Origin: a virus
Taxonomy: Duplodnaviria; Heunggongvirae; Uroviricota; Caudoviricetes
IMG/VR virus record: IMGVR_UViG_2778261086_000003
Location: 1 to 13,716 of that record
Length of the DNA: 13,716 nucleotides
Reading direction: 5' to 3' (one strand)
The notes beneath the pieces are model-generated. The model was not told the origin of the DNA, searched no databases, and worked only from the letters and a program-made list of their open reading frames with translations. Position 1 is the first letter of the stretch. Each line of letters opens with the position of its first letter. Positions 4,614-13,716 of this stretch are shown here, piece after piece. The position numbers and the translations under genes were made by a program.

Positions 4614-5138
4614 TTATTGTTTAACCCATAATAATTCATTGACATTGAATCCCAACTTTTGAGCGGTTCGCACATAGTCTGCTTTTACTTTATCTGGAAT
4701 AGTTGGGGTCCTTGCCAGAATCCATAGGTATTCTCTGTTCGGACCACTGACAAGAGCATACTTATACTCATCATCCAGTTTGATTACATTATAGCCACCA
4801 TAGAAGGGGCCAAAAAACGAAACCTTCAATGCTGCAGTTTTAGTATCTCCAGTAAAGTATGCTTTACCTTCGCTCTCGCTCCATTTATTTTTCGTTGGAT
4901 CGTATCCACGGTTAAGTACACGAATCCCTCCGTCGTTCCGTTTTCCATAAGTAGCGCTGACCTGTTCCAGATCACGTTCGAACCGGTTCTCGAGGCGAGC
5001 TATTTCATACCATTTTCCGAGGTAGCGGTTGGCGTCAAAATTTGTAATCGGCTGCACACCTTTAGGTGGTGTCGGGGCCTTACATGCTATAAGAGTGAAA
5101 GAGAGTGCAATGCCAGTCAACACAGGCCATAACTTCAT
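4614..5138 (-). CDS. Blc-family bacterial lipocalin, outer-membrane lipoprotein (174 aa)
   Basis: Signal peptide with lipobox (LIAC), then lipocalin signatures (NFDANRYLGKWYEIARLENRFE...YLWILARTP). Homologous to but distinct from chromosomal Blc. Lower GC than flanking phage genes and antisense to late transcription. Confidence 0.85.
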   Translation of the reverse strand: MKLWPVLTGIALSFTLIACKAPTPPKGVQPITNFDANRYLGKWYEIARLENRFERDLEQVSATYGKRNDGGIRVLNRGYDPTKNKWSESEGKAYFTGDTKTAALKVSFFGPFYGGYNVIKLDDEYKYALVSGPNREYLWILARTPTIPDKVKADYVRTAQKLGFNVNELLWVKQ

Positions 5139-5330
5139 AATAAATCCTGTACTTTTGATAGTTGAGAGTAAGTATGAAAGATAGATGATTACGACCGATC
5201 ACTTAAAGAACTTTCATACTATATTAGGAATAGTCCATAACAGAAAAATTGTCAGTGATGACGCCAGAAAGGCAATTTATTCCGTGCACTACACAGTTTA
5301 TGTGTTAATGAATTAGTCAAGGGGGAGAAT

Positions 5331-6290
5331 ATGATAAAAAAACCTGTGATTGGAATCAGCGGTTGTTTGGCCGGTTCTGCTGTTCGTTTTGATGGTGGTC
5401 ACAAAAGAGCTGACTTTTTAATGGACAAATTAGTGGAATGGGTAACATTCAGACCAGTATGTCCGGAAATGGCTATAGGGCTGCCAGTTCCGCGTCCTGC
5501 TCTACGTCTTGTGCGCTCGACGCAAGGAAATATACGGATGTGTTTCAGCCACGACCAGAATGAGGATGTGACAGAGAGAATGACAGAGTTTAGTCGTTCT
5601 TATATGGACAAATTAAAGGATGTATCGGGGTTTGTGGTTTGTGCTAAATCTCCCAGCTGTGGCATGGAGCGCGTGCGTGTCTATGATGAAAATGGTAATC
5701 GAGGTCGTAAAGATGGAGTGGGACTATTTACGAGTACTTTGATGGAAAAGTTTTCCTGGCTACCGGTTGAAGAGGATGGGCGATTACATGATCCAGTGCT
5801 TCGTGAGAATTTTGTTGAAAGAGTTTTTGCTTTGCATGAGCTCAATCACCTTTACAAGGAGAAATTATCAAGAAGAGAGTTATTAGCTTTTCATAGTCGT
5901 TATAAGCTTCAGTTGTTGGCGCATAGTCAGGCAGGCTATAAAGATATGGGACCATTTGTGGCTGCAATACACGAGTGGGCGGACCTTGAATCATACTTTG
6001 AGGTGTATCGTGATAATCTGATGGCGATTCTCAGAAAACCAGCATCACGTAAAAATCACACGAATGTGCTGATGCATATACAGGGGTATTTTAGTAATTA
6101 CTTAAGTACACGCCAGCGTAAAGAGTTGAGCGAGGTTATACTTAACTATCGCTTTGGCACATTGCCTCTTCTTGCGCCGTTGACTCTGCTGAAGCATTAT
6201 CTGGGTGAGTATCCTAATGATTACTTGCTTACACAGAATTACTTCGATCCCTATCCGGACGAACTGGCTCTAAGACTGATGGTAAATTAA
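5331..6290 (+). CDS. DUF523-DUF1722 fusion protein (RudS/TudS-like putative thionucleoside desulfidase, 319 aa)
   Basis: N-terminus has the DUF523-type Cys pattern (GISGCLAG, PVCPE, CAKSPSCGM), consistent with a [4Fe-4S] TudS-like fold. The C-terminal ~150 aa resemble the DUF1722 (YbgA-like) domain. GGAG 4 nt before the ATG. Domain call from memory, not HMM-verified. Confidence 0.65.
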   Translation: MIKKPVIGISGCLAGSAVRFDGGHKRADFLMDKLVEWVTFRPVCPEMAIGLPVPRPALRLVRSTQGNIRMCFSHDQNEDVTERMTEFSRSYMDKLKDVSGFVVCAKSPSCGMERVRVYDENGNRGRKDGVGLFTSTLMEKFSWLPVEEDGRLHDPVLRENFVERVFALHELNHLYKEKLSRRELLAFHSRYKLQLLAHSQAGYKDMGPFVAAIHEWADLESYFEVYRDNLMAILRKPASRKNHTNVLMHIQGYFSNYLSTRQRKELSEVILNYRFGTLPLLAPLTLLKHYLGEYPNDYLLTQNYFDPYPDELALRLMVN

Positions 6291-6641
6291 TTGTATGCGA
6301 TATCATCCAAAAGGATGAGTTCCTGCATGCAGGATATTTACAATCGTAAAAACTACACTATGATACCCAGAGTGTCAGTTTGTATAAAAACTCTGTTTAC
6401 GCTGAAGAAACAATTGAGATGCAACTTAAAGTTGGTAAACATGCCAGTCAAAATATATAATATTATGATTCCACGCAGCTATATATAATATAACAGATTG
6501 GTTTAATAATTTGTCTTTGTGAGTTAAATACATAATTTTATACTTGTGATGCAATGAAATTTTCCTTATTGTTGAACTGGCGAATATTGATTTTCCACCT
6601 ATACTTACCTGGTGTAACCCCAATGATATCAGGTGGATAAT

Positions 6642-7373
6642 ATGCCATACATATGTTCTATCATTTTGGTGTTGAACTCGTTTGATGTCCGAATTGGTAA
6701 AGAAGATATTTTGTTTAAAAAAGGAAGTGCTGTTCTCATTGATTACAATTTAAAAGATTTTTTTTCATCAAATATAGATCATGTAATGATCGTAGATGTT
6801 GAAGAGAAAACAGTTAATGATTTCTTTAAAAGCAACACACTCTCACCTTTTTCTGTAAGAAGGTTTTATCCGGCATACTTGATGGTGGAATGTGAAGATT
6901 TTTCATTGTTAAAGAACTTGATTGCATGCTTGAATTGTGATGGCAGAACTGTGGATTTTGTTAGAAATCAAATATCACTTGCATGTCTTGCTATCTTATC
7001 TTCAGAGAAAATAGTGCAAAGTTTTTTATTTGGATGTCTTAATAGTTTAGGAAGTAAAGTTAAGGCTATTATTCACACGGATATATCTGCAGCATGGAGA
7101 CTTTGTGATATATCTTCAAGACTGTATCTGAGTGAAAGTCTGTTAAAAAGAAAATTAAAGCACGAAGGCTTATCATTTAGTAAGTTAATTCTTGAAGAGC
7201 GAATGGTGATGGCGGAAAGGTTATTAAGCTACAATTTATATTCTGTTGGAAAAGTTGCTGAGATATGCGGTTATGAAAACACGTCATATTTTGTAAGTGT
7301 TTTCAGAAGATATTTTGGTGTTCCTCCCCATCAATATTCATCAAGATTTTTTTTAGAAAAAGACATGATGTAA
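6642..7373 (+). CDS. AraC/XylS-family transcriptional regulator (243 aa)
   Basis: C-terminal AraC-type HTH region (LLKRKLKHEGLSFSKLILEERMVMAERLL...VGKVAEICGYENTSYFVSVFRRYFGVPPHQY). ATG at 6642 with AGGTGG 5 nt upstream; the ORF-track start at 6633 is a GTG extension. Very AT-rich gene and leader. Confidence 0.75.
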   Translation: MPYICSIILVLNSFDVRIGKEDILFKKGSAVLIDYNLKDFFSSNIDHVMIVDVEEKTVNDFFKSNTLSPFSVRRFYPAYLMVECEDFSLLKNLIACLNCDGRTVDFVRNQISLACLAILSSEKIVQSFLFGCLNSLGSKVKAIIHTDISAAWRLCDISSRLYLSESLLKRKLKHEGLSFSKLILEERMVMAERLLSYNLYSVGKVAEICGYENTSYFVSVFRRYFGVPPHQYSSRFFLEKDMM

Positions 7374-8274: not shown

Positions 8275-8503
8275 GTAGAGTAACCGCGATTATGGTTCGA
8301 AATGGGATGTTATCCGTGAACGTGTGCTCAAGCGTGACAAAGGACTGTGTCAGTTATGTCTGCGTGGTGGTGTGGTGCGTGAGGCGAAAACCGTTGACCA
8401 CATCATCCCTAAAGCACATGGCGGCACTGATGCCGACAGCAATCTGCAGAGCCTGTGCTGGCCGTGTCATAAGGCGAAGACGGCCCGTGAACGGCTGAAG
8501 TAA
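8271..8503 (+). pseudogene. Rz (spanin) start fused to the 3' fragment of an HNH endonuclease gene
   Basis: ATG at 8271 encodes MSRVTAI, identical to the first seven residues of lambda-type Rz, then diverges. A different frame (from ~8279, after an in-frame TAG at 8276-8278, to TAA 8501-8503) encodes SNRDYGSKWDVIRERVLKRDKGLCQLC...DHIIPKAHGGTDADSNLQSLCWPCHKAKTARERLK, an HNH C-terminus with no start codon. Confidence 0.6.
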
Positions 8504-8628
8504 GAACCAGTTCCCACTGCCAGAGGGGAGGGGCGGGTCAAATCCCTGTGACCTGACGTCTTCCGGACTGCCCGCCCCATCGTTTTTTTATACCCGCGAA
8601 AAATGAAATTTAACCAGGAGTGCCGCAT
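8504..8628. other. putative cos / packaging-site region
   Basis: Non-coding, GC-rich, with an imperfect inverted repeat (GGGGCGGG ... CCCGCCCC) and a T-tract, located between the HNH fragment and the small terminase gene, the usual cos position in HK97-like modules. Cleavage site not identifiable by eye. Confidence 0.3.
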
Positions 8629-9123
8629 ATGGCTGGAACGGCGGGGCGTTCCGGGCGTCGCCCCAAGCCAACGGCGCGCAAGGCGCTGGCCGGAAACCCC
8701 GGCAAGCGAGCCCTGAACAAAGATGAACCTGTTTTTACGCCCATCAAAGGTGTTGAGCCACCGGAGTGGTTCGCTGAAGAAGATCTCCCTCTCGCCACGA
8801 TCATGTGGCAACTGACAACCAAAGAACTCTGCGGTCAGGGCCTGCTGTGCGTGACTGACCTCGCGGTGCTTGAGCGGTGGTGCGTGGCCTATGAGTTCTG
8901 GCGACGTGCCGTGAAAAATATTGCCAGACAGGGCAACACCATCACCGGTGCAATGGGCGGCATGGTCAAAAATCCGGAGCTGACCGCCAAAAAAGAACAG
9001 GAGTCCGAGATGAGCAGCACGGGGGCAATGCTCGGACTCGACCCCAGCAGCCGTCAGCGTCTGATTGGCCTGGCGGGGCAGAAGAAAACCACTAACCCGT
9101 TTCTGAAAATCATCGAATCATGA
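8629..9123 (+). CDS. terminase small subunit (P27/HK97 gp1-like, 164 aa)
   Basis: ATG at 8629 with AGGAG 9 nt upstream; the ORF-track start at 8620 is a GTG extension. Basic N-terminus ([27 protein letters not shown]). Stop overlaps the large terminase ATG (ATGA). Confidence 0.8.
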
Positions 9124-9938
9124 GCCGGAAATCTTACCCCAACGTAAATGCTGCCAATCAGTATGCCCGGGATGTCGTGCGCGGAAAGATTGTGGCCTGC
9201 CAGTTTGTGATTCAGGCCTGCCAGCGCCATCTTGATGACCTGATGGAGGAAAAAAGTAAGTCGTTTCGTTACCGCTTCGACAAGGACCTGGCTGAACGGG
9301 CCGCGAAATTTATTCAGCTGTTGCCGCACACCAAGGGTGAGTGGGCATTTAAGAGGATGCCCATCACGCTGGAGCCGTGGCAGCTCTTTGTGATCTGCTG
9401 CGCGTTTGGCTGGGTCAATAAAGGCTCCCGGCTGCGCCGCTTCTGTGAGGTGTATACCGAAATCCCCCGTAAGAACGGCAAATCGGCAATCTCTGCCGGT
9501 GTCGCCCTGTATTGTTTTGCCTGTGATAACGAGTTTGGCGCGGAAGTGTATTCCGGTGCCACGACAGAGAAACAGGCGTGGGAAGTCTTTCGCCCGGCGC
9601 GACTGATGTGTAAACGCACACCCATGCTGACGGAAGCGTTCGGGATTGAGGTTAACGCCTCAAACATGAACCGTCCGGAGGATGGCGCGCGGTTTGAACC
9701 GCTGATCGGCAACCCCGGTGATGGTTCATCACCCCACTGTGCGGTGGTGGATGAATATCACGAGCACGCCACCGATGCGCTTTATACCACGATGCTTACC
9801 GGGATGGGGGCGCGACGTCAGCCACTGATGTGGGCCATCACCACCGCCGGGTACAACATTGAGGGGCCGTGCTACGACAAGCGGCGGGAAGTTATCGAGA
9901 TGCTCAACGGTTCGGTATCAAATCGGATGGCACGGTGA
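9120..9938 (+). pseudogene. terminase large subunit, 3'-truncated (N-terminal ATPase domain only, 272 codons)
   Basis: Walker A motif (EIPRKNGKS) and ATPase-domain sequence present. The reading frame stops after ...EMLNGSV, whereas intact large terminases are roughly twice this length. Downstream sequence switches to unrelated glycine-rich coding. Confidence 0.8.
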
Positions 9939-10600
9939 AAACGGCTCTCGAAAACCTTGGTTTGGGAGATGGCTCGGGGCGTTACAGCAAAACTGTCGTT
10001 TTTTCATCGTCGGGTTCATATACGTGGCCAGCTGACGTAAAACGAATTGACGTTATTCTGACTGCGGGGGGCGGCGGTGGCGGTGGATGTAACGCGGAGA
10101 ACGCAAATCAGACATTTTCAGGGGCTGGCGGAGGAGCCGGAGGTACTGTTTTTGCCACTATTTATGCGACAGACAACGATGCCGGGCCAGGGACCTATAC
10201 AGTGACAATTGGCAGCGGTGGTAGTGGTGCCAATGGGCCAGGGTCTGGAAATAATGGCGGTAATAGTTCGTTCATGACATTAACTGCGCTCGGCGGCCAG
10301 GGTGGGCAATGGGGCGGCGCTACAAATACCGCTGGCGGGCGCGGTGGCTCAGGCTCTGGCGGTTATAAAACTGAACAAGGCGGAGACGGTTCAGACGGAC
10401 AGGCGGGCCAGGCGCTATTAGTAGGCAATGGGGCATCGAGCTATTGGGGTGGCGGCGGCCGCGCTGGGCAACTGAGCGGTAATCCTGGAGTTTGCTCTGG
10501 CTCCGGCGGCGGGGGTGCATACGATAATAGCTATTCACACACGTCAGGACGTGGCGGGCACGGAGCTAATGGCGTGCTGGTAATTCGGGAGTTCATGTAA
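9869..10600 (+). CDS. glycine-rich tail-fibre C-terminal fragment (5' end missing; real start unknown)
   Basis: ORF of 243 codons overlapping the truncated terminase. Sequence ...[26 protein letters not shown]... followed by long GGxGG/GSG runs is characteristic of glycine-rich domains of phage tail fibres. Immediately followed by a tail fibre assembly gene. The first ~15 codons are probably terminase DNA read out of frame. Confidence 0.5.
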
Positions 10601-11005
10601 ATGAATGATATCTATGCAGTTGTTGATAATAACGTTGTTATTAATGTCATTATCTGGGACGGAATTTCTGAATGGAAACCAGAGGCTGGTAATTTAGTTC
10701 CGTTAAACGGCGATGCTGGCATCGGTTGGTCATATTCAGACGGAGTATTTACCGCGCCACCTCCCCCAGAACGCTCTCACAACGCGTTAGTTGCGGAGGC
10801 TGAGCTGCAGAAATCAGCACTACTGACCGTAGCAAATAACACAATAGCACCGCTGCAGGATGCCGTTGATTTGGAAATGGCGACAGACGATGAACAGGCG
10901 TTAATGCTGGCGTGGAAAAAATACAGGGTACTGCTGAACCGTGTTGATACCTCAGCGGCACCCGAAATAGAGTGGCCTACGCAACCGGGGGAGCGGGCCA
11001 GTTGA
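10601..11005 (+). CDS. tail fibre assembly protein (Tfa, 134 aa)
   Basis: C-terminus ...[48 protein letters not shown] matches the conserved Tfa chaperone C-terminal domain. Start is immediately after the upstream stop (TAAATG). Confidence 0.8.
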
Positions 11006-11129
11006 TATCAGGCGCAGCGTCAGCATCAACTGCTGTCACTGCGTCGATGTAGTCGAGTACCGCATTCAGCCGCGTTTTTTCATCATCAGTCAGTTTGCGG
11101 CCTGCACTTCTCCGTTGACATCTTTGTTA
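10977..11129 (-). pseudogene. decayed fragment of a second, convergent tail fibre assembly gene
   Basis: Minus-strand translation gives ...[38 protein letters not shown], sharing the TDDE...VD..AP.I.WP pattern of Tfa C-termini. No start codon in frame; upstream frames contain stops and a frameshift. Its 3' end overlaps the plus-strand tfa by about 28 bp. Confidence 0.4.
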
Positions 11130-11263
11130 TATGGTACAACTGCGCAGAGGCCTGTCTCTTCAATTGTGCCAGTTGAATACTACGATACAACGCTCGGCCT
11201 TCCTGTTTGGTGGAACATAACCACATCCACATGGAAAAGAGCTGATGGTGTAGATGTATAAAC

Positions 11264-11293
11264 TTAAAAAAGGCGCTTTTTAGCGCCTTTAAA
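11264..11293 (-). terminator. rho-independent terminator after the acyltransferase gene
   Basis: Stem AAAGGCGCT (11269-11277), loop TTTT, stem AGCGCCTTT (11282-11290). Read on the minus strand the hairpin is followed by a U-tract, directly after the acyltransferase stop at 11294-11296. Confidence 0.55.
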
Positions 11294-12415
11294 TTAAGAT
11301 ATTCTTTTAGCTATAGAATGACCTATATTTATAAACGGTTTTTCTATTACGTTATATATCAAGTAAGATAGGCTTATAGAAATTATGAGCGATGATATAT
11401 AAATGGCAAACGATCTATGTTCAGTGCTAATACCAATACTGGAACCGTAAAACTCAATAAACTGTATAACAGGAACATGAATCAGATAAAGTGAATATGA
11501 TATTCCACCAAGAGCAACAAGTGATTTATTGAATGAAATAACTTTATTATTTTCTAGAATAATAACACACAAAACAATCAGAAATGCAATATATGCAGAT
11601 CGCGTCAAACCATGTCCTTCAGACACCCCATTAAGCCAAAAAACAAACATCATTCCTAGAATGAAAACGCATAAACTATTTATAATAGAATTATTCATTC
11701 TTTTATGCCTAAGTAAAGGCATTGTCTCTGATATAATCATCCCTAAAATGAAATCATATACTATAGGATTGCCTATGAATCCTATATGAGAAAACACCCC
11801 TGTTTTTGCAATATTGAATGATTGGGCGTCAATTACTACCGAGTGGTTAAAGTAAAGAGAAATAATTGTACTTACAGCAACTAGAAAACATGATGTGATT
11901 AATACCCTGTATTTTATGCTTAATGACATGGATATTGCGAAAATAAAATAAAAATATATCTCGTACCCAAGTGACCATGAAACAATTAGCGTTCCCCACC
12001 CATAATATGGCGGTAGAGTTGAGACATCTAAAGGGATGAGAAGAAATGATTTTATAATATTATTTATAGAAAAAACACCACCCCATGATACGCCTGTGTA
12101 AATATTGTGGTAAAAAAGAAAAACATAAACGCTTAATACTATTGCGTAAACAGGATAAATTCTAAAAAATCTCTTTACAAGAAATGAGGCGGTATTTCTT
12201 AAAGATGTTTTTGTAAAGTTTTTAGTTGAGTATGATATTATAAATCCGCTTATTATAAAAAACAATTCAACTCCAAATATAGCATTCGCGGTTATCCTGT
12301 CCATGAAAGAACCAGGATCTACTTGCCCGAAAAGACCTCTATTATGACCAATAGCTACAGCAAGAGCTGCAATTCCACGAAGCGCTTCTATTCCGTATAA
12401 TTTATCTGTTTTCAT
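11294..12415 (-). CDS. acyltransferase-3 family integral membrane O-acyltransferase (Oac/OafA-like, ~373 aa)
   Basis: Multi-pass hydrophobic protein with the N-terminal acyltransferase-3 signature (LYGIEALRGIAALAVAIGH). Start placed at ATG 12415; the ORF-track start at 12418 is a TTG. Very AT-rich and adjacent to the integrase, as for O-antigen acetylase genes of Shigella phages. Confidence 0.85.
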   Translation of the reverse strand: MKTDKLYGIEALRGIAALAVAIGHNRGLFGQVDPGSFMDRITANAIFGVELFFIISGFIISYSTKNFTKTSLRNTASFLVKRFFRIYPVYAIVLSVYVFLFYHNIYTGVSWGGVFSINNIIKSFLLIPLDVSTLPPYYGWGTLIVSWSLGYEIYFYFIFAISMSLSIKYRVLITSCFLVAVSTIISLYFNHSVVIDAQSFNIAKTGVFSHIGFIGNPIVYDFILGMIISETMPLLRHKRMNNSIINSLCVFILGMMFVFWLNGVSEGHGLTRSAYIAFLIVLCVIILENNKVISFNKSLVALGGISYSLYLIHVPVIQFIEFYGSSIGISTEHRSFAIYISSLIISISLSYLIYNVIEKPFINIGHSIAKRIS

Positions 12416-12558
12416 CAAGTAATATAGTTAGTAGTTGATAAAATTGTTGCTGGAGTCTACCACCAAGAGCTTGGATGATCGACCAGTTAGCATCTCAAGC
12501 TGTATGCGTGAGACAAAAACGAGACACACAAAGCTTTGCAAGTCTTTGCGCTGTTTAC

Positions 12559-13716
12559 CTATGATACCTTCTCCTCAATCCAATCCGCCCACCACTGCAT
12601 CATTTCTCTGCGCTTATCGAGATACTGAGCATGGTTGTAAATCCCGCGCACAGATCCGCCGTTGGCATGTGCCAGTTGCACTTCAATAGCATCAGCAGGC
12701 CATTCGTGCTCGTTCATAATCGTGCTGAATTCATGCCTGAATCCGTGACCGCTTTCCAGACCTTCATAGCCGATTTGTTTGATCACAAGCAGTACAGCGT
12801 TCTCGCAAATTGGCTTCTTCTTATCGTTGCGCCCGGCAAAAACAAACTCTGATACTGGTTTGGTGATTGAACTTAGCGTAGTGAGAAGTTCAACTACCTG
12901 GTCTGACATAGGAACCACATGAATCTTGCGTCCCTTCATCACACTGGCCTCGATGGTGATAATCCTGTTTTCAAAATCGACGTTCTTCCATTGCATGGAA
13001 CGAAGCTCTTTTGTTCTTAGTGCTGTGTAGCGTAAAACTTTGGTCGCAATGAGAGATACGATACTTCCTGAAAATGTTGCAAGTGCTTTGTTGAATGCCG
13101 GGATCTGGTCGGCAGGTAAAAACGGGAAGTTCTTCTTGCGGTATCCTTTCATGGCGTCTGCAAGGTCAGGTGCCGGGTTATATTTAGCCCTTCCGGTGAC
13201 AATAGCGTAACGAAAAACCTCGCCGCATCTTCTGCGGGCTTTGTTGGCTCGCTCCATTGCACCGCGATCTTCAAATCTTCGGATTACTTCCAGCAGTTGC
13301 ATCGGCTCAATATCCTGAATTTCAAGACCGCCGATGATGGGTAAAATGTCGTCATCAAACATTTTGGCAAGTTCAGTTGCATAGCCTACTGACCAGACTT
13401 GCTTCTTGTGCTCGTACCATTCCTTGTAAATCGCACTAAATGAATTGTTGTTAGACGAAGCCTTTTTCGCCTTTACCGGATCGATGCCAACCGAGATGTC
13501 TTTCCTCGCAGTCCATGCCTTATCCCTTGCTTCCTGCAAAGTCATAAGCGGATATTTTCCGACAGTCAGGATTTTCTCCTTACCGTCAATCTTGTAGCGA
13601 AGCTGCCATACCTTTTTCCCTGATACAGGGACATAAAGGTACAGGCCATTACCATCGAGTAGGCGGTATGGTTTTTCTTTCGGCTTTGCTGCTTCAATCT
13701 GCTTAACGGTGAGCAT
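12559..13716 (-). CDS. tyrosine-type site-specific integrase (P4/CPS-53 IntS-like, 385 aa)
   Basis: Full ORF whose ATG is the last three bases of the window. C-terminal catalytic signature (HGFRHEF ... LAHANGGSVRGIYNHAQY). N-terminus MLTVKQIEAAKPKEKPYRLLDGNGLYLYVPV is typical of tRNA-associated P4-family integrases. Attachment site would lie beyond the window. Confidence 0.9.
   Translation of the reverse strand: MLTVKQIEAAKPKEKPYRLLDGNGLYLYVPVSGKKVWQLRYKIDGKEKILTVGKYPLMTLQEARDKAWTARKDISVGIDPVKAKKASSNNNSFSAIYKEWYEHKKQVWSVGYATELAKMFDDDILPIIGGLEIQDIEPMQLLEVIRRFEDRGAMERANKARRRCGEVFRYAIVTGRAKYNPAPDLADAMKGYRKKNFPFLPADQIPAFNKALATFSGSIVSLIATKVLRYTALRTKELRSMQWKNVDFENRIITIEASVMKGRKIHVVPMSDQVVELLTTLSSITKPVSEFVFAGRNDKKKPICENAVLLVIKQIGYEGLESGHGFRHEFSTIMNEHEWPADAIEVQLAHANGGSVRGIYNHAQYLDKRREMMQWWADWIEEKVS

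Follow-up and report, generated by a model that had tools for sequence, protein, structure and literature searches.

The stretch of DNA considered here, hereafter the window (13,716 nucleotides), belongs to a decaying E. coli prophage of lambdoid/SfV/e14-like type and makes up its right part, which ends in the integrase gene intS; in sibling prophages tRNA-argW lies just past this gene. The left part of the window holds early genes (DUF551, HNH, Ea22-like, RusA and the Q antiterminator), and further on come lysis genes and the genes for the small and the large terminase subunit, the latter only as a 5' fragment. Three moron-like genes are found between the Q antiterminator and the lysis genes (4614-7373), coding for a lipocalin (minus strand), a YbgA-like 2-thiouracil desulfurase/DUF1722 protein and an AraC-type regulator. 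The features of the right part, in which a fibre-tip cassette, two convergent tail-fibre assembly (tfa) genes and a piece of a tailspike gene follow one another, are listed in Table 1.

Table 1. Features of the window from the large terminase fragment to the end of the prophage
Feature	Position	Strand	Evidence and remarks
terL 5' fragment (terminase large subunit)	9120-9916	+	PF03354, E 3.6e-26; left partner of the window-specific deletion
Deletion junction terL::stf	9913-9917		Three-way sequence comparison; GGT-type microhomology
Tail-fibre gene, 3' part	9916-10600	+	Few last constant codons, then the variable glycine-rich receptor-binding part (Sv); PF21722 (Gly_rich_2), E 2.1e-19
Orphan Din-family crossover site, pixL-like	9945-9970	-	ATCTCCCAAACCAAGGTTTTCGAGAG; 25/26 identical to e14 pixL
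Intact tfa, tail-fibre assembly gene of the retained cassette	10601-11005	+	134 aa; PF02413 (Caudo_TAP), E 3.3e-32
Tail-to-tail overlap of tfa and tfa' stub	10977-11005		29 bp; centre of symmetry of the former invertible segment
tfa' pseudogene stub	10977-11118	-	Last 43 codons, in frame to ~11107
Tailspike 3' remnant	11133-11261	+	Last 42 codons and stop; matches the C-terminal 45 aa of CBA120 TSP3 (PDB 6NW9/5W6F), E 1e-11
Terminator hairpin of the acyltransferase gene	11269-11290	-	Between tailspike remnant and cargo gene, as in Sf6
Acyltransferase-3 family cargo gene	11294-12418	-	PF01757, E 9.4e-29; Oac-like by position and family only
Integrase gene intS, argW-specific type	12559-13716	-	Pfam integrase domains; prophage end

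The closest sibling of the window is the prophage of strain 2018-05-2CC (L011), relative to which the window has two extra deletions. The larger, of about 4.9 kb, lies at 9916 (window 8285-9916 corresponds to L011 8301-9932, and window 9916-13716 to L011 14842-18642) and has approximately 3 bp of microhomology at its junction, which is situated 28 bp upstream of the crossover site and at which terL now runs, out of frame, into the final third of the tail-fibre gene. The terL fragment is 94-95% identical to terL of L011 and to e14 aaaE up to 9916-9922, and its ORF continues to 9938, out of frame with stf. Missing from the window as a result of this deletion are the 3' part of terL, the portal and protease genes, tail remnants and the constant part of stf. 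An invertase-mediated origin of the junction was considered and rejected, given its distance of 28 bp from the site and the presence of nothing more than the ~3-bp microhomology. The second deletion (1.35 kb, at 8285-8293) took the end of the lysis cassette, a DUF6979 gene, a hypothetical gene and an HNH gene. Of the complete E. coli genomes, none covered at least 80% of the window.

The tail-fibre gene of the window is 5'-truncated and has no native start. In the sibling prophage L001 the same 3' part forms the end of a continuous ORF of 310 codons with a StfP-like N-terminus (L001 11753-12685). Here, and likewise in L002 and L011, PGAP annotates the fibre ORF as two features that meet at the crossover site, a 'StfP pseudogene, missing C-terminus' and a 'glycine-rich domain-containing protein', a division which is an annotation artefact brought about by the cassette boundary. 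A search of the GTDB species representatives with the glycine-rich tip returned no relative.

The convergent tfa genes and the crossover site

It had been predicted from the sequence of the window that an intact tfa gene on the plus strand and a decayed tfa-like C-terminus on the minus strand overlap tail to tail by about 28 bp, in a feature extending to 11130, and both genes have proved to be real. The plus-strand product scores 111.8 bits over positions 41-130 of the PF02413 profile, for which the gathering score is 22.1 bits, and is 38% identical to e14 TfaP and 37% identical to Mu U. In a profile search the minus-strand remnant, termed here the tfa' stub, matches positions 94-130 of 131 of the same family (E 6.1e-11, 43 bits). 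Alignment with the C-termini of e14 TfaE and TfaP and of Mu U and U', which had been proposed as a check, gave a highly significant similarity to TfaE (30 of 45 residues identical, 67%; BLASTP E 3e-18) and 45% identity to TfaP; no significant BLASTP match was obtained with Mu U or U'. The overlap has the predicted coordinates but is exactly 29 bp long, and the outer boundary at 11130 did not hold: at the DNA level the stub can be aligned with e14 tfaE, CPS-53 tfaS, SfIV gp22 and tfa' of the plasmid-prophage p13P477T-2 to ~11107-11118, and similarity to e14 tfaE fades by 11118.

The stub frame contains no ATG, GTG or TTG start that would give a product of at least 25 aa, and a stop just upstream closes it. 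Its homologue in the sibling prophages is labelled by RefSeq (PGAP) as a tail fiber assembly protein, 'incomplete; missing N-terminus'. A recent origin of the stub by local inverted duplication of the plus-strand tfa was considered and rejected, since the two share only 43% identity over 35 aa, compared with 67-76% between the stub and TfaE-type genes. An overlap of 29 bp is found in 79 convergent tfa pairs, drawn from e14, p13P477T-2, CPS-53, SfIV, the siblings and IMG/VR loci, with intact switches included.

Inverted crossover sites flanking the two genes had also been suggested as an object of search, and one site of the Gin/Cin/Pin type was found, which the original prediction did not contain and which is added here. 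At the level of its match to pixL (Table 1), 0 chance occurrences are expected. The site agrees with the published e14 inverted repeat TTGGTTTGGGAGAAGG at 15 of 16 positions (PMC12529663), has the AAACC..GGTTT core in common with Mu gix, and was aligned also with the sites of intact switches. It is located at the constant/variable (Sc/Sv) junction inside the tail-fibre gene, where homology to e14 stfP, SfIV and CPS-53 ends (9969-9972) and homology to the cassette of an intact switch in another viral contig, L194, starts (9948). Conservation of the site alone is no proof of its past use in this lineage, because it also encodes a conserved peptide.

The remaining components of a switch are missing. 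No second crossover site was detected in the window, even with 8 mismatches to pixL or pixR allowed, and a repeat search in 9000-13716 gave no convincing inverted repeat that could represent it; the siblings, too, carry a single site. That the window holds no invertase gene, as originally stated, was upheld by tblastn with PinE (best E 0.19), and the recommended search of the neighbourhood for a pin, gin or hin homologue found none annotated in up to 12 kb of flanks in the sibling prophages L001, L002 and L011. Where a switch has two fibre-tip plus chaperone cassettes tail to tail, the window has one that is complete and, in place of the other, 43 codons of tfa' with no Sv'. All matches are colinear across both site and overlap, and no inversion polymorphism was seen among them. 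With no invertase, one site, one cassette and no orientation polymorphism, the locus is today a relic and not a switch.

The tailspike remnant and the Sf6/P22-like end module

The stub directly abuts the 3' remnant of a tailspike gene, a feature that was likewise not in the original prediction. The remnant is nominally part of a TTG-started ORF of 48 aa (11115-11261; GTTAQRP...YYDTTLGLPVWWN...ADGVDV*) and resembles, at 60% identity, the C-terminal end of a tailspike of the P22 type that is encoded in the contig L121, is 587 aa long and has a Head_binding domain (PF09008); in the window the C-terminal 42 codons are all that is left of such a gene, and no head-binding domain is present. No match was found at the DNA level between the remnant and the tailspike gene of Sf6, nor was any donor tailspike found above ~75% DNA identity to 11133-11261.

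Among alleles of the module, the 48-aa ORF shows the highest diversity (0.067 per site, with a pN/pS of ~0.3), and its last 15 codons show mosaic exchange with alleles of other phages, which suggests repeated recombination at the joint between stub and tailspike. This C-terminal tailspike module is found, too, at the end of many separate ORFs of ~80-130 aa that lie just downstream of tail-fibre or tailspike genes, as in the IMG/VR loci L116, L117, L122, L125 and L128-L132 and in phage AV104 (L007 3824-4141).

Directly past the tailspike end stand a convergent O-antigen-modification gene and an argW-type integrase gene, in the order known from Sf6. The likeness to this Lederbergvirus is extensive, since tailspike end, terminator, acyltransferase and integrase share order and orientation and Sf6 also integrates at argW; the difference is that the window keeps the last 42 tailspike codons only, with a C-terminus of the CBA120 TSP3/L121 type. 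The acyltransferase shows weak similarity to Sf6 Oac (31% over 81 aa). The DNA of intS is 97.5% identical to Sf6 int and 95-97% identical to the integrase genes of HK620, CUS-3 and other Lederbergvirus-type phages.

Modules of this kind are seen in other surroundings. In L121, which is a P22-type contig, the full tailspike gene is followed by gtrB and gtrA; at 95% identity these two genes recur in the SfV-like prophage of E. coli 042 (L002), where they stand behind the same stub and tailspike tail. The 95% identity takes in gtrB/gtrA and the adjacent ybhB junction (L002 9392-12140 against L121 6161-8902), whereas the gtrC genes differ and the tailspike tails are only 73% identical. A serotype-conversion end module has here clearly moved between phage types, namely a myovirus-type prophage and a P22-type podovirus. 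In a further locus, L115, a tailspike end is followed by an intS gene 96% identical to that of the window.

Relatives of the module and its probable history

The contig L194 (IMGVR_UViG_2571042420_000006) harbours an intact switch that comprises a pin gene and a pair of inverted sites, and one of its two cassettes is the cassette of the window. Window 9948-10993 and L194 4978-6023 are 96.8% identical in DNA, the Sv parts 96% and the Tfa proteins 93% identical in amino acids. In L194 the cassette lies beside the pin gene, which is 84% identical to PinE, and is bounded by a pixR-type site and by an inverted site inside a tail-fibre gene of 504 aa on the other strand. Homology with the window sets in within the crossover site and stops at the middle of the tail-to-tail overlap, such that the inner half-site (ATCTCCCAAACCAA) moves with the cassette and the outer half follows the flank, being of pixL type in the window and of pixR type in L194. 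This is the pattern that is predicted for inversion at the centre of the site. The two loci differ in that the L194 cassette is the silent alternative, its partner being another glycine-rich tip with a tfa of only 60 aa; the overlap there is 20 bp, the exception to the 29-bp rule. A glycine-rich cassette of 61% identity is also part of an intact switch in L196. As judged from these comparisons, the presence of the same cassette in the intact switch of L194 is the line of evidence that speaks decisively for reading the window as a relic.

Relatives of the stub are widespread. Pattern scans of IMG/VR yielded 487, all confirmed by tblastn. The truncated 49-codon stub frame of the window is found in at least 17 viral contigs, which have one site and in none of which a Pin homologue was found (0/17). 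The distant relatives, 63 loci with a tfa 64-76% identical to the stub and most often 198-212 aa long, present the opposite picture, with a Pin homologue within the fetched locus in 45 of them, usually together with two inverted sites. Stub and tailspike remnant occur together in 72 of the 5,426 complete E. coli genomes and in no fewer than 17 viral contigs (~40 kb).

Collectively these findings favour the original proposal, that the convergent pair is the fossil of a lost invertible tail-fibre switch, by virtue of the retained site, the same cassette in the intact L194 switch and the lack of an invertase. The module is very probably the frozen remnant of an invertible host-range switch of the Pin/Gin/Cin type (Din family) in an e14/SfV/CPS-53-like prophage. 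The ancestral prophage would have had a serine invertase that flipped a segment of ~1.9 kb, bounded by a pair of inverted 26-bp sites that lay within the tail-fibre gene and beside the invertase gene, respectively, so joining the constant 5' part of the fibre to either of two variable 3' parts, each with its own chaperone gene; the chaperone genes would have stood tail to tail with the 29-bp overlap. Four parts appear to have survived, namely the left site, the whole cassette (9971-11005, glycine-rich tip and tfa), the overlap and the last 43 codons of tfa'.

The rest of tfa', Sv', the right site (pixR) and pin were most likely lost in one illegitimate recombination, which would have joined the middle of tfa' to the final 42 codons of a tailspike gene from an Sf6/P22-like phage and brought in the terminator, the O-antigen-modification cargo and the argW integrase. 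Because neither the donor nor the undeleted ancestor was found, replacement in a single event stays a model, and several successive events would leave the same picture. Nor was a full-length copy of the exact tfa' allele found, the nearest full-length genes being 76% identical over the stub, and the ancestral breakpoint is therefore deduced rather than observed. In its present form the module is unable to invert and circulates as a fixed unit. The later 4.9-kb deletion removed the constant part of the fibre, and therefore no host-range function is expected from the window. The orphan site may conceivably still be a substrate for Pin-family invertases of other prophages in the same cell, and so act as a landing pad for the capture or exchange of fibre-tip cassettes or for rearrangement between prophages, although we regard this as improbable.

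The mosaic nature of the locus lends itself to another history, in which this lineage never had a working switch and acquired the tip/tfa cassette with a piece of tfa' from a switch-bearing phage, through homologous recombination at the conserved junction within the fibre gene and an illegitimate join on the right-hand side. Import would be in keeping with the mosaicism of tail-fibre cassettes, with boundaries of the present cassette (the site and the overlap centre) that fall where the L194 homology ends, with the clear mosaic joint on its right side and with the allele exchange between the tailspike remnant and other phages. It is nonetheless unlikely, as close relatives of the tail module, including e14 itself, carry an intact P segment with pin. 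Even if it were correct, the stub would still be switch-derived, and the history of the feature would change but not its nature.

Patterns of variation bear on whether any of the decayed part is in use. The overlap has zero nucleotide diversity among 13 alleles of the module, which might point to a present function as an antisense or terminator element for tfa, and a translated protein of 48 aa, YodE, at the equivalent position beside tfaS in K-12 might by analogy point to a small protein made from the stub. However, the intact tfa reading frame alone constrains the overlap, no terminator-like structure was called there, the stub has no start codon and YodE is unrelated in sequence. The stub is about three times as diverse as tfa, and its pairwise differences comprise 4 synonymous and 26 non-synonymous changes, giving a pN/pS of ~2.3 from small numbers; the corresponding value for the plus-strand tfa (1.1, at a diversity of 0.008) comes from too little variation to be informative. 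A function of overlap or stub today is accordingly very unlikely. With all its copies colinear, the module behaves as a frozen one, and the faster, mostly non-synonymous change of the stub is that of a pseudogene. That the minus-strand similarity arose by chance or as a low-complexity antisense artefact of the plus-strand tfa, to which the shortness and alanine/aspartate richness of the stub and the lack of any match of the 49-aa stub in a tblastn search of the phage collection (probably owing to its low-complexity filter) might lend colour, is already refuted by the Pfam and BLASTP scores, by the tblastn-confirmed relatives in IMG/VR, by the alignment of the DNA with four other tfa' genes and by the fact that only 29 bp overlap tfa, the remainder lying downstream of it.

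As the frozen remnant of an invertible switch, the module is an ordinary by-product of prophage mosaicism and decay, with little importance past annotation, and it exemplifies the loss of a programmable host-range switch and the later spread of what was left as a fixed module. It is also a natural example of cassette modularity, in which the unit extends between the crossover point and the overlap centre, and it accounts for the partial opposite-strand tfa genes, and for the splitting of fibre genes at the crossover site, that annotation pipelines produce. Part of this is already known, in that the stub is annotated as a partial tfa in RefSeq and tfaS of K-12 CPS-53 is a parallel case. In the literature searched, no paper was found in which the module is explicitly described as a relic switch.

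Comparison with known invertible segments

The nearest characterised system is the P segment of e14 in E. coli K-12, with its order stfP-tfaP/tfaE-stfE between pixL and pixR and its invertase PinE. It belongs to the same tail-module family, with YmfQ and StfP as neighbours in the siblings of the window, and the likeness extends beyond the site, the 29-bp tfa overlap and the TfaE-like stub to a DNA identity of 69% across the overlap region. In e14, however, both cassettes, pixR and pinE are retained, whereas the window has a single cassette with a single site and, of the other tfa, 43 codons, and the fibre tip is of the glycine-rich PF21722 type in the window but of the StfP type in e14. The e14 repeats are 1797 nt apart and lie next to pinE. 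The 1797-bp segment inverts, and PinE, PinQ and PinR act on it, reportedly in trans (PMC12529663); inversions are reported in e14 only, and none for CPS-53 in E. coli genomes (PMC12529663).

CPS-53 (KplE1) of K-12 resembles the window in its argW site and in the presence of intS, cargo genes, an opposite-strand tfa pseudogene, tfa and stf, in the order intS-gtr-yodE-tfaS(pseudogene)-yfdK-yfdL, and it has a perfect pixL-type site in stf and no invertase. It differs in that its tfaS stub is 100 aa long and of the TfaE allele (~95% to e14), its cargo is gtrABS, and the flanking small ORF is yodE, with no recognisable tailspike tail. YodE, a translated 48-aa 'toxic protein' of K-12, is encoded between the cargo genes and the tfaS pseudogene (L004 5498-5800, minus strand), in a frame that is open for 101 codons; its position and relative strand are those of the tailspike-tail ORF of the window. 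No homologue of YodE was found in phages, in the PDB or in the loci of this analysis, and the notion that it is homologous to the 48-aa ORF or to tailspikes was rejected, there being no sequence match.

In SfIV the opposite tfa, gp22, is 174 aa long and is cut off by an IS element, so that with tfaS of K-12 at 100 aa there exist relics of graded extent. The SfIV gene, ORF-22 on the opposite strand, has been suggested to be an additional chaperone that might explain host range (PMC3851460). The present analysis advises caution here, as tfa ORFs on the opposite strand should not be read as extra functional chaperones.

The G segment of Mu, inverted by Gin, shares with the ancestor proposed here a constant Sc, two cassettes, each of an Sv and a chaperone gene, that meet tail to tail, and 26-bp sites whose core is AAACC..GGTTT; in Mu, by contrast, U and U' do not overlap but are separated by a gap of 28 bp. 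The C segment of P1, with its invertase Cin, follows the same switch logic as the Mu G segment. In the known Din-family systems the Fis-dependent recombinational enhancer lies within the invertase gene, and vestiges of crossover sites have also been discussed for tail-fibre genes of the P2 type.
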